Assembly (NCBI GenBank): GCA_965203315.1
Contig: CBDBCE010000005.1
Location: 1-64,000 of the forward strand
Direction of reading: 5' to 3'
Source: Nitrosopumilus sp.
GTDB lineage: Archaea; Thermoproteota; Nitrososphaeria; Nitrososphaerales; Nitrosopumilaceae
Length of the DNA: 64,000 bases
This document shows positions 5,681 through 9,271 of this stretch, in pieces; within the stretch, counting starts at the first letter, position 1; each line of letters starts with the position of its first letter. A model generated the notes under the pieces. It was not told where the DNA came from. It searched no databases and saw nothing but the letters and a program-made list of their open reading frames with translations. Both the position numbers and the translations under genes were made by a program.

Positions 5681-5929
5681 TAAAATCACAATGGCTGTTT
5701 TGTAAAAGGACTGATAACATTATCGATCTTTCTGGTTTGTTGTAACAATACTTGTTATGAACAGCACTTGATCGTATAATGTTCACAAAGCTTATTGATG
5801 ATTATCCCAATTGTCAGTCTTCCCAAATGTCTACTTGTCGAATCACTGCCGTCTCAGGCGGTGGTCGTGGCAAGATGAATGAACAGGTATACGCCAACAT
5901 ATTTGAAAATCTAATTGACTAATTTGATC

Positions 5930-6041
5930 AGTTCTTTTAGATTTATGTGGAATTGTATTTCACAAAGCTTTTTGCTAATTGTCTCTTGTGGAATCTTGTG
6001 GTGTTTTCTGTAACCATATTCCACGTAAGCCGAAAAGATCC
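5930..6041. mobile_element. MITE family B, copy 2
   Basis: AGTTCTTTTAGATTTATGT...ACGTAAGCCGAAAAGATCC. Confidence 0.75.
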
Positions 6042-6094
6042 ATTTGGTAACAATAGATAAATCACTGAATCAATTTGACTGTGATATTATCCAT

Positions 6095-6282
6095 GTGAAT
6101 AGCTTATAAAGATTTACTCTGATTCACGACTATTGTGCATAGCATACGCTAGGGATGTGTTCCCATGTAAAGGACTGCGAACATATATCCATTCGAGTGG
6201 TTAACTCACTATCATTCTTCGTCCATTCGTCAAAATCTGTACATTTAGGTCGCCGAGTGATATCTCAAATATCTTCCGTACG
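6095..6282 (-). ncRNA. putative bridge RNA / seekRNA of the IS1111 element
   Basis: Contains GACCUAA (target left), UGAUA (complement of target right), AUGGAUA (donor left), AUGG (complement of donor right) in that order; exact ends unknown. Confidence 0.65.
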
Positions 6283-7290
6283 TTAATGATTTCGACTACA
6301 ATGTGTGACATAATCATCCCTATCTATAAGCATATGGTACATCAATCGTAGTAGTTTGGAGGCAGTTGCAACAGTTGCTTTGCTTACCGCGCGTCTCTTT
6401 TTAATTCTGTTATGAAATTTTGTAATGTAACTATGGGGCTCACATTTTATGTGTACATGAACTGCTTCGGTCAATGCCCATCTAAGCATTTTATCACCTT
6501 TCCTCGTTATATGTCCATGATTTTGTTTACCAGCTGAATTACGAACAGATGGTACTATTCCTGCATACGAACATATCTTACGAACAGTTGGGAATCTCTT
6601 GACATCTCCAATACTAGATATTACAACAAGTGCAACAAAGTTTCCAACTCCGGGAATCGTCTTTAACAACTGTGCATCTTGTGATCTCTTTACCTCCTCA
6701 CGCATTTTAATATCCAATTGTCTAATCATTTCTTCATGGCAAGTTATCATATCTAGATAGTTGTCTATTCTATAATCCTCAAGTTTCTTCAATTCCTCTC
6801 TAAATGACTTGCTAAAACTTGAACCAGGTATTTTAATCCCATATTGCAGTAATATCCCATGTATGAGATTCTTGTATTTTGTTCTACTCTTTACAATTAC
6901 ATCCCTATGTCGAACCAACTGTTTTAATTTAACAGTGTATTCACTAGGAACAAAACAAGGCGAGATATAATTTCCTCTTAAAAGATCTGCCAGTGTCCAT
7001 GCATCCACCTTGTCTGTCTTTTTCTTTGATTCGGCAATAGCCTTTGTTTGATATGGATTCGATAGTACTACATCAAATCCCAATTCATCTGTCAAGTATC
7101 TATACAGCCAATACCATACTGACGATGACTCCATCACACAACGTGTATTGAGTGGTGTAAATTGTGCAAAGAATTTTTTGAGACTGTCATGATCTGTAGC
7201 AACACGCTCATTGAGTATACGCTTGCCATCCTGATCCATTGCTGCAATTTGCAGAAACCTCTTGTGTGCATCTATTCCGATATAGATCAT
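6283..7290 (-). CDS. IS110-family transposase/recombinase
   Basis: IGIDAHK, VMESS, KTDKVDA (DEDD); TIPGVG, YAGIVPSVRNSAG (catalytic Ser), RWALTEA; likely start MIYIGID. Confidence 0.95.
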   Translation of the reverse strand: MIYIGIDAHKRFLQIAAMDQDGKRILNERVATDHDSLKKFFAQFTPLNTRCVMESSSVWYWLYRYLTDELGFDVVLSNPYQTKAIAESKKKTDKVDAWTLADLLRGNYISPCFVPSEYTVKLKQLVRHRDVIVKSRTKYKNLIHGILLQYGIKIPGSSFSKSFREELKKLEDYRIDNYLDMITCHEEMIRQLDIKMREEVKRSQDAQLLKTIPGVGNFVALVVISSIGDVKRFPTVRKICSYAGIVPSVRNSAGKQNHGHITRKGDKMLRWALTEAVHVHIKCEPHSYITKFHNRIKKRRAVSKATVATASKLLRLMYHMLIDRDDYVTHCSRNH

Positions 7291-7425
7291 CTTGTTTTTC
7301 TTTTTTAGATGGGTAATCTGTTCGTTTGCATTTTCTCTTTTAGATCGCTTTACAGGTGATCGCTTGGATCGACTCACATACCTTCTATCATCTGAATGTA
7401 CTCTGATCGGCTTCTTCACATATGG

Positions 7426-7641
7426 TTAGGTCTTGCTGAGTCTCTTTGATATCTTTAGCGAAAAACCCATCGCGATAAAATGAACTATTGCACCTGCTAC
7501 TGCTGCAACTATTAGATCATCTATCAATACCCAGATCAAACCAAATATTACAAGAGACGGCACAGTGACGATCAGAGCAATAATTGTTCCACGTAACGCT
7601 ATCTCTCGTTTTGTCAGTCTAGATCTCTTATCCGACATCAA
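7426..7641 (-). CDS. small two-TM membrane protein
   Basis: Two hydrophobic helices; conserved-looking thaumarchaeal ORF. Confidence 0.7.
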   Translation of the reverse strand: MMSDKRSRLTKREIALRGTIIALIVTVPSLVIFGLIWVLIDDLIVAAVAGAIVHFIAMGFSLKISKRLSKT

Positions 7642-7708
7642 CCTTGAATGCTGTAACAGTAATAAAAATCAAAGATGCTTTATATTGGTCAAAGCCAAAT
7701 CAAAGATC

Positions 7709-8164: not shown

Positions 8165-9271
8165 TCAGAGACTCTTTGCAAGCTCGAGTTTTTGTGGAAG
8201 ATACTTTTCTGTAATGTTTGTTAGGCCATACTTTGAGAATGCTTCTAGCTCGGCCTTGCGTTTTATTCGCAAGAATACATCCAGCTCTTTCTTCCAGATG
8301 CCATCTTCATATCGAGGATCTCTCTTCAAGTCATGGCATCTCTTGATATCGGATTCAGTCATGGGTATAGTTGGAAGTTTATACTTTTCAATGTCTGTTG
8401 CCCACACGCCTACCCATTTTGCATCTGGGACAGTGAGCTCTCGTAGATGAGCTGCGTTGGCCGAACCAGACTTTATCACCATTGCAATATGTTCTCCATA
8501 TACGTCGCCGTCGGTCAGTACGATCACCGGTAGACCCATCTCGTCATGAAGGCGTTTGAGCAGTGTTCGTGTAGAACGAGGCGCTTGACCTCCTGTATTG
8601 ATGATTATCGATTTGAACTTTTTGTCCACCTGCTCTTCTACAAATCTTGTAAAGAGTCCACCCTTCTCTATGGCGATTACGATCTCGGCACTAGTATCAA
8701 TGAACTCTGCCGTTGTGAGGCTTGGACCTATAGAGTAACCATCTGGATGGTTCGATAGATTCATCGGCTTTCCTTCATATCCTGGTATTGTATATTCTAT
8801 ATTCAAGTCGCCAAATATCGAACTACGTTCTTCAGGAAATATGTGAAAGTCTTCTCTTGGTCTAGACGTCACTGCTTCTAGATCAACTATTATGTTGTCA
8901 GATTCTGACTGATCTTCAAACTCGATCGCAAATGCCTGCGATGAGTAGTATACATCTCGAAGTGTAGATGACTTTTTCTCTTGCGTCAGTCTGTTTGCAA
9001 AGAATGCAAGCCACATCAATTGGGTAAAAGATCGTAACTGTGACGAATTTCGAGAGCTCCTCAAAGCTGCATTCTCTCCTAGAATGTATTGGCGCAGTTT
9101 CTTGTCGTATACGATATTGTTTACCGATCTACTGGGAATTAAGAACTTGGGGAACTCGCCCTTGTCGAGTTCTTCATATATCTGCATACCTTGCTTTTTT
9201 AGTATCTCTAGTACATTCTTTTGCTTATTCTTTGCTTTCTGTTGCAACTCTTTTGTCTTACTTGTTTTCAA
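8165..9271 (-). CDS. top6A: DNA topoisomerase VI subunit A
   Basis: STLRDVYY, IEKGGLF, TGGQ, TDGDVYG, KAELEA motifs. Confidence 0.97.
   Translation of the reverse strand: MKTSKTKELQQKAKNKQKNVLEILKKQGMQIYEELDKGEFPKFLIPSRSVNNIVYDKKLRQYILGENAALRSSRNSSQLRSFTQLMWLAFFANRLTQEKKSSTLRDVYYSSQAFAIEFEDQSESDNIIVDLEAVTSRPREDFHIFPEERSSIFGDLNIEYTIPGYEGKPMNLSNHPDGYSIGPSLTTAEFIDTSAEIVIAIEKGGLFTRFVEEQVDKKFKSIIINTGGQAPRSTRTLLKRLHDEMGLPVIVLTDGDVYGEHIAMVIKSGSANAAHLRELTVPDAKWVGVWATDIEKYKLPTIPMTESDIKRCHDLKRDPRYEDGIWKKELDVFLRIKRKAELEAFSKYGLTNITEKYLPQKLELAKSL

Follow-up and report, generated by a model that had tools for sequence, protein, structure and literature searches.

A predicted guide RNA that fits its own insertion sites in an IS1111-type insertion sequence of a Nitrosopumilus archaeon

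RNA-guided recombinases of the IS110/IS1111 type are under development as programmable genome-rearrangement tools, and those characterised so far are nearly all bacterial. In the bridge recombinases of IS621 and ISCro4 (PDB 8wt6 and 9t56), as portrayed in the cited portions of PMC11208160 and PMC11208158, an active site of DEDD plus Ser is combined with a two-loop RNA that carries four guides, core included, each loop reading both strands around a core dinucleotide. The IS1111 group is recognised by sub-terminal inverted repeats of 7–17 bp (PMC11208160, section 12; PMC11187229, section 6), and of the IS1111 elements in ISfinder, 93% have a bridge RNA predicted by covariance models (PMC11208160, section 12). 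According to the abstract and sections 9 and 12 of PMC11187229, the top-strand match of an IS1111 seekRNA lies 5′ of the bottom-strand match, which is the opposite of the IS621 order. Archaeal IS110-family recombinases have already been recorded (662 in one survey, by the portion of bioRxiv 10.1101/2024.06.21.599552 cited here). We describe such an element in the archaeon Nitrosopumilus sp., located on the minus strand between positions 7428 and 6088 of a 64,000-nt stretch of DNA (hereafter the window; assembly GCA_965203315.1, contig CBDBCE010000005.1, positions 1 to 64,000). Coordinates are window positions, and the features of the element are all on the minus strand.

With a probability of about 0.88, this region is an intact IS110-family insertion sequence of the IS1111 type, for which comparison with its copies and relatives predicts a guide RNA that fits the element's own insertion sites; it is also active-looking. 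It adds a member to the already known IS110/IS1111 class, and the known mechanism is unchanged. Like the IS1111 elements with a seekRNA (ISEc11, ISKpn4, ISPa11 and ISPst6; Siddiquee et al. 2024, the cited parts of PMC11187229), it combines a DEDD transposase, followed by a long non-coding region, with sub-terminal inverted repeats and the same order of target matches, and it leaves no duplication beyond the shared core. It differs from them in its archaeal host, in a protein identity of only about 25–27%, in a catalytic loop that reads S-A rather than S-G or T-G (PMC11187229, section 6), in target and donor loops that are both simple internal loops, with donor guides that covary with the element ends, and in a possible N-terminal extension of 34–78 aa whose translation would begin at the tip of the left end. 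With IS621 and ISCro4 it shares the active site and the predicted two-loop, four-guide RNA described above. In contrast to theirs, its RNA lies downstream of the gene, at the right end, with a mirrored guide order, and is not an IS621-type bridge RNA; its core is TA rather than CT, its inverted repeats are longer and the proteins are only weakly alike. No paper on a Nitrosopumilus bridge RNA was found in the literature searched; archaeal or similar IS1111 structures may be shown in the supplements of Durrant (Extended Data Fig. 10c, Supplementary Table 5) and may already be shown in Supplementary Figs 2, 6 and 7 of Siddiquee.

The recombinase open reading frame (ORF; 6283..7419, stop codon 6285–6283) is intact; translation from GTG 7419 would give 378 aa, and that from ATG 7290 would give 335 aa. 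Its product contains the Pfam domains PF01548 (DEDD_Tnp_IS110, N-terminal; 2.7e-29) and PF02371 (Transposase_20, C-terminal; 9.2e-24), and scores 264.7 bits against NCBIfam NF033542 ("IS110 family RNA-guided transposase"; cut-off 140). Residues D7, E54, D93, D96 and S252 (numbered from ATG 7290) align by phmmer to 8wt6_A with D11, E60, D102, D105 and S241 of IS621, the residues given as catalytic in section 6 of PMC11208158. The original prediction, made from the window sequence, had described the recombinase as intact with DEDD plus a catalytic Ser, and so it proved; the residue behind this Ser is Ala, not Gly. The protein is 100% identical to those encoded at C1:232068-233072 and C1:1216229-1217233. 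Its closest named relatives (45–52% identity) belong to Nitrosopumilus and Nitrosopumilaceae assemblies, in agreement with the archaeal host that had been proposed, and remoter ones (30–41%) to Archaeoglobi, Thermoplasmata and Bathyarchaeia. Full-length alignments were obtained with the transposases of ISEc11 (26.9%, E 4e-18) and IS4321 (25.1%, E 1e-15), and weaker ones with IS621 (8wt6; E 5.6e-10) and ISCro4 (9t56; E 7.9e-12), although these E-values come from different databases and the comparison is one of pairwise alignments. The protein aligns better (36–38%) with IS110-family genes of Rhizobiales and Sphingobium plasmids.

Both junctions of the element were read on the minus strand. The left one (7434..7415) is AAGACC-TA-ACCATATGTGAA and the right one (6099..6081) is TTCACATGGA-TA-ATATCAC, such that a body of 1337 bp without the core (6090..7426) lies between two TA copies, at 7427..7428 and 6088..6089. 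A TA stands at the left junction of every element with a located left end and in empty sites, and the right copy is seen in the junction sequences and, again, in empty sites. The left target AGACC (7429..7433), which is the 3′ end of a host ORF of 71 aa, matches the corresponding guide at 4/5 positions, and the right target ATATCAC (6081..6087) agrees at 5/7 with the ATATCTT predicted from its guide. The sub-terminal inverted repeats, CCATATGTGAA on the left (7415..7425) and TTCACATGG on the right (6091..6099), are each set one base inside the element end and form nine base pairs, the left repeat pairing with 6099–6091 except for a 2-nt bulge. Their outer bases covary in other lineages (GTGG/CCAC, GTGTC/GACAC and GTGCC/GGCAC).

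The genome of the window (2.47 Mb, 7 contigs) contains 11 full-length copies of the element as well as fragments, of which L012–L018 are degenerate. Six copies, including that of the window, form group A (98–100% identity), which suggests recent movement; three copies at 93% form group B, and two further ones, L010 and L011, are 71% and 67% identical, respectively. One more copy has 51% protein identity. The copies occupy different sites: (T/A)(T/A)GACC|TA|ATATC(T/A)(T/C) in group A, GTTAAGT|TA|AAAGAACC in group B, CACAAAAA|TA|TTTTCGA for L010 and CATCAC|TA|GAATTAC for L011. Three unoccupied paralogs of the L011 site (TCAC-TA-GAATTAC) have surroundings identical to those of the occupied one, in which TA is present at both junctions, and the right-hand triplets read TAT in L010, TAG in L011 and TAG in L003. 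Insertion is therefore precise, and the core is TA and not TAA; comparison of the empty and occupied L011 sites reveals no target duplication beyond this short shared core. Of the TAA core proposed originally, TA thus stands, while the third A is the first base of the element on the left and the first base of the right flank (6087) on the right; the circle junction sequence proposed with it is unaffected. In addition, the genome holds 45 unoccupied target sites of group B, and the unoccupied group A motif occurs once at full length and three times in a shorter form.

Some copies deviate from the regular pattern. The left end of copy L005 (C1:1216119-1217436) lacks its first 28 bases, and the GACCTA flank abuts CATTCAGA, which follows an internal GTA in intact copies. 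In copy L002 (C1:231865-233300) the left flank carries a 14-base tandem duplication, CATTTCTTGACCTA. The truncation and the duplication could be scars of aberrant recombination at TA. Copy L003 (C1:673032-674386) has the right flank TA-GC-ATATCTTAC, in which the expected ATATCTT is shifted by two bases from the core; this may reflect off-register insertion or a later indel.

The evidence for guides comes from the 193 non-coding nt that separate the stop codon (6283) from the right end (6090). Groups A and B, near-identical otherwise after the stop codon, differ there in two blocks: (i) 6275–6270, AAGATA in group A and GTTCTG in group B, which is the reverse complement of the right flank, and (ii) 6251–6248, GACC and AAGT, respectively, which is the left flank and is followed by the core. 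These blocks delimit the predicted right target guide (RTG), AAGAUAU (6269..6275; GUUCUG in group B), which covaries with the right flank and is adjacent to U6268, able to pair with the core A, and the predicted left target guide (LTG), GACCUA (6246..6251), which equals the left flank plus the TA core and is followed by A6245 and A6244 (AAGUUA in group B, with the flank AAGT|TA). Copies L010 and L011 and the 51% copy obey the same guide-flank rule, so that a single genome holds five guide variants, each fitting its own flanks. In run X5, B-type letters stand over the window at 6248, 6249, 6251, 6270 and 6272–6275, and also at 6209.

For a wider comparison, a covariance model was built from four lineages of the window's own genome with a hand-defined structure; a search of 81 loci gave 39 matches, and a second search of 38 more loci (taken from two relatives rich in copies and from a third genome) gave 46. 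In the first set (27 insertion instances, 15 lineages), guides matched their own flanks at 4.00/5 (left) and 5.73/7 (right) positions, compared to 1.25 and 2.99 for the flanks of other lineages; the observed total was attained in 0 of 200,000 permutations, and in 14 of the 15 lineages the own flank outscored all others. Pooling both sets (49 distinct sites, 24 lineages) gave 3.92/5 against 1.22 on the left and 5.79/7 against 2.97 on the right, again with 0/200,000 permutations attaining the total; in 20 lineages no foreign flank outscored the guide's own, which stood alone at the top in 16 of them. The test of guide-flank covariation over copies and orthologs, which had been put forward as a check, was thus positive, with corrected guides, and it upheld the LTG assignment (6251–6245) and, together with the covariation of guides with ends and within stems, the broader claim that the non-coding 3′ end of an IS1111-type element encodes target and donor guides of a putative guide RNA. 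Of 151 genomes sampled from the class, 8 contained matches to the covariance model (E up to 1e-5), the window's genome included. All eight lie within the family of the window (7 of 80 genomes besides its own) and represent four genera, and two of these genomes carry 18 and 19 copies.

Since the RTG lies 5′ of the LTG, as it does in all 24 lineages, the element follows the IS1111 rule and not the IS621 order. The complete guide order is RTG-LTG-RDG-LDG (RDG and LDG being the right and left donor guides), instead of the LTG-RTG-LDG-RDG proposed originally, a series which had been ascribed to IS621 bridge RNA and IS1111 seekRNA alike and which merges two orders published as different (PMC11187229, in the sections cited above). 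Together with the sub-terminal inverted repeats and the downstream position of the non-coding region, this order fits the IS1111 group.

The two bases that follow the LTG core (6244–6245 in the window) are identical to the first two bases of the donor left end in 10 of 15 lineages (AC, AT or AA, covarying). The LTG thus spells the left junction of the integrated element, which may be relevant to excision or strand exchange. Extension of pairing by the same two bases into the cognate right flank was considered and rejected, as they were equal in only 1 of 15 lineages. No consistent equivalent of the handshake guides of IS621 was found beside the RTG or after the LDG, where the two bases behind the core equalled the right flank in 1/15.

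The two donor guides correspond to the element ends. The LDG, AUGGAUA (6186..6192), repeats the five terminal bases of the right end and then the TA core, as had been predicted; the match is 7/7 in 20 of 21 distinct elements, and the variants ATAGATA, ATGGGTA and ATGGATG track the right end. The RDG, AUGAU (6211..6215), can pair at 4/5 positions with ACCAT, the five bases that open the left end. Across the 18 elements compared, 4 or 5 of its 5 positions match in every case, with compensating pairs such as ACGGU/ACCGT, AUAGU/ACTAT and AUGAU/ATCAT. On either side, 0 of 100,000 permutations attained the observed value (diagonal 4.44 vs 3.70 and 6.78 vs 6.20); the margins are small because the element ends vary little.

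Two other loci are of note. At L055:2535-2698, a copy is inserted into the donor-loop segment TATAGATAAATGTCC of a copy of the same element, which looks like self-targeting via a guide that mimics the donor end. L052, from a named Nitrosopumilus assembly, contains nested or partial copies.

In the structure supported by covariation, each pair of guides occupies an internal loop, with a basal stem below it and an apical hairpin above. The target-binding module (6239..6281) has a basal stem of 6281–6277 with 6243–6239 (helix 1, 4/5 pairs with compensatory changes) and an apical hairpin at 6267–6254 (helix 2, 3/4). The donor-binding module (6169..6227) is built in the same manner from 6227–6221 with 6175–6169 (helix 3, 6/7) and an apical hairpin at 6208–6194 (helix 4, 3/5). 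Two small hairpins, P3 (6163–6152) and P4 (6151–6140), form helices 5 and 6 and vary in sequence among lineages with the same donor ends (6140..6163). In a model-fitted alignment of 33 distinct sequences, 90.6% of the cells were paired and compensatory changes were seen in 21 of 27 pairs; 0 of 500 shuffles attained these values, and sliding the partners by 1–3 columns reduced pairing to 47% or less. RNAalifold, applied to an independent MAFFT alignment of 8 sequences, recovered both basal stems in part, the apical hairpin of the donor loop and P4; the apical hairpin of the target loop and P3 were not recovered in this run, in which the target loop is misaligned in distant members. The check suggested originally, whether the four segments sit in two internal loops, comes out positive for this comparative structure, but two of those four segments were misassigned and a fold of the single sequence 6087–6290 does not show the arrangement.

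Several observations weigh against the interpretation of this region as a guide RNA fitted to the insertion sites of the element, or reduce its force. The RDG of the window copy has one mismatch to its own left end. At least 4/5 on the left target together with at least 5/7 on the right is reached at just 28 of the 49 sites, and individual lineages score 2/5 on the left (L056 and L061) or 3/7 on the right (L053 and L134). The permutation figures are generous because the lineages are related, which overstates their independence, and because the registers for guide scoring were set after viewing the data, with a one-base shift permitted equally in the controls. The alignment used for the stem counts was fitted to its own model and is biased toward that structure, and the single-sequence fold of 6087–6290 is no better than those of shuffled sequences (z = 0.66) and differs from the covariation-supported one. 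A search of 5800–7700 against Rfam at E up to 10 returned no family match, apart from a chance-level hit to DUF805b. No RNA run containing the sequence of the element was found, and the RNA and its ends are predicted. Finally, neither a circle junction nor an empty window site was found in the assembly contigs of four runs (X1, X4, X5 and X6), which break at the ends of the element (6087/6088 and 7428/7429) and are uninformative on activity. An orthologous empty site was likewise not found in 60 genomes of the genus, in which homology to the left flank ends at ~7438–7445 and the right flank has no match.

The state of the window copy argues against its being a dead relic, that is, a true member of the family that is no longer mobile. 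Its ORF is intact and encodes a protein identical to those of two other copies, and both ends, the four guides and the stems are preserved; this makes loss of mobility very improbable, even though the right flank fits its guide at 5/7 only, the contigs contain neither the circle junction nor an empty allele, and degenerate fragments of the family do occur in the genome.

A further alternative is that the protein alone picks the target and that the non-coding end is a 3′ untranslated region or a regulatory structure, whose likeness to the flanks would be a by-product, e.g. of captured target sequence. The weak left-side matches of several lineages would suit this, as would the fact that the RNA and its binding to the recombinase are deduced for this element. 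We nevertheless regard it as very improbable, since two separate segments track two flanks in opposite strand senses over 24 lineages, precisely these segments set apart copies that share 93% overall identity and occupy different targets, and homologous elements have been shown by experiment to require the RNA (abstract of PMC11187229; PMC11208160, sections 6–7).

There is, lastly, hardly any chance that the original map was exact, with an IS621 order of LTG (6251–6245), RTG (6214–6210), LDG (6192–6186) and RDG (6166–6163): its four strings and the junctions are all present where they were placed (GACCTAA 6251–6245, TGATA 6214–6210, ATGGATA 6192–6186 and ATGG 6166–6163), and TGATA is complementary to the TATCA of the window's right flank, but this segment is unchanged in lineages with the right flanks ATATCTT, AAAGAACC, TTTTCGA and GAATTAC and so cannot specify the target, the remaining group A copies read TATCTT and not TATCA, ATGG lies in a stretch that is variable while the donor ends are constant, and a different segment, 6275–6269, covaries with the right flank. 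The supposed RTG, UGAUA, is the same in group A, group B, L010 and L011 and overlaps the RDG at 6215–6211, and the supposed RDG, AUGG, is by hairpin P3. In 20,000 mononucleotide shuffles of 6095–6282, the strings GACCTAA and ATGGATA appeared with frequencies of 0.013 and 0.020, respectively, compared to 0.27 for TGATA and 0.54 for ATGG; the latter two, which are the same two misassigned according to the comparison, are thus by themselves no better than chance. By the sequence comparison, the fit of TGATA to the window flank is a coincidence.

With the guides placed as RTG-LTG-RDG-LDG, a mechanism can be outlined by analogy with the characterised relatives. Downstream of the recombinase gene with its DEDD/Ser active site, and on its strand, a bridge (seek) RNA of about 145 nt with two internal loops would be transcribed and bound by the recombinase. 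In the target loop, the RTG would pair with the right flank and the LTG would match the left flank plus core; in the donor loop, the RDG (6215–6211) on the 5′ side would pair with the first bases of the left end, and the LDG (6192–6186) on the 3′ side would match the last bases of the right end plus core. As in IS621 and ISEc11, the element would be excised as a circle with the junction TTCACATGGA-TA-ACCATATGTGAA, and the RNA would hold junction and target side by side so that they recombine at TA.

This archaeal clade is a compact and readable example of such a system. One genome contains five guide variants. Groups A and B, 93% identical overall, are retargeted by about eight base changes, and together with the 45 free sites for group B they constitute a natural test of programmability. 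The clade is also a source of orthogonal recombinase/RNA pairs.

The free group B sites point to a relationship with other transposons. The sequence AAGT-TA-AAAGAACC targeted by group B belongs to the terminal inverted repeat, GGGTTCTTTTAACTTA(A/T)CGGGGG, of a different transposon family, and the 45 sites are found on contigs C1 and C5 of the same genome (e.g. C1:124213(-)/124363(+) and C1:446447(-)/447889(+)). This family comprises elements of ~1.4 kb encoding a 365-aa transposase of the DDE_Tnp_IS240 type (IS6-like; 6.6e-14; L098:275-1372(-)), as well as miniature derivatives of ~150 bp. Judged by these sequences, one mobile element serves as a landing pad for another. IS4321 and IS5075 are comparable in this respect, as far as can be told from a title cited in PMC11208160: like them, group B inserts in the terminal inverted repeat of another transposon, whereas the host, the target and the family of the target transposon are all different. 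Elements that prey on other transposons in ammonia-oxidising archaea bear on how genomes grow rich in insertion sequences.

A further feature concerns the expression of the element. A conserved, outward-pointing TTTATAAG (6103..6110), resembling an archaeal TATA box and a putative promoter, is located 21 nt before the right end, and a TTTATAA-like box is found at exactly this distance in 16 of 20 distinct elements. In the circle, the first T of the box would sit 30 nt upstream of GTG 7419, which lies in the left inverted repeat. In 19 of 20 distinct elements, this GTG shares its reading frame with the catalytic motif, and no stop interrupts that frame from the base behind the junction TAA onward; reading by peptide gives 20 of 21, with L011 as the exception. 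Between the GTG and the recombinase proper there are 102 to 234 nt, which would encode an N-terminal extension of 34–78 aa (7291–7419 in the window) that is basic and has recurring SDD/SDG and NKQIT-like motifs. The frame of bacterial IS621, unlike this extended one, starts only six residues ahead of the first catalytic Asp. Even a GC-rich lineage retains the nucleotides CAGATTACC, so that the conservation may lie at the level of the nucleic acid.

Bacterial relatives re-form a promoter at the circle junction (PMC11187229, section 12; PMC11208158, section 4). We tentatively propose, with the odds somewhat against it, that the recombinase and the trailing bridge RNA are expressed only on circularisation, when an archaeal junction promoter would yield a leaderless mRNA, with a promoter from one end of the element and a start codon from the other. 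The background to this proposal is the usual spacing of TATA boxes in archaea and how often archaeal mRNAs are leaderless. In the integrated state, the TATA-like box would fire outward into host DNA. Nothing relevant on an archaeal junction TATA promoter was found in the literature searched.

The insertion point of the window copy coincides exactly with the stop codon of the 71-aa ORF (7426–7641, minus strand), which encodes a hydrophobic protein. Because the insertion re-creates TAA from the TA core and the first A of the element, this ORF is unaltered. Its product has a weak Oleosin match (E 2.8e-4, below the cut-off), and 54 of the 60 genomes searched within the genus have the ORF conserved, as judged with a query (1–660) that also spans the upstream neighbour. 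A neighbouring ORF of 368 aa (8165–9271, minus strand), whose product, from its sequence alone, resembles subunit A of DNA topoisomerase VI, fits an archaeal host.

A second case of one element in the end of another was noted in a related genome, G179 (L124–L132, L135 and L141). Here, a guide type with the RTG loop TTTTCACATT has the target AACTA-TA-TGTGAAT, a sequence that forms the left end (inverted repeat) of another IS1111-like type present in G179. At several loci of G179 the two IS1111-like types are arranged in tandem, ~1.3 kb apart (e.g. L126:382-537 and 1701-1866, both on the minus strand).

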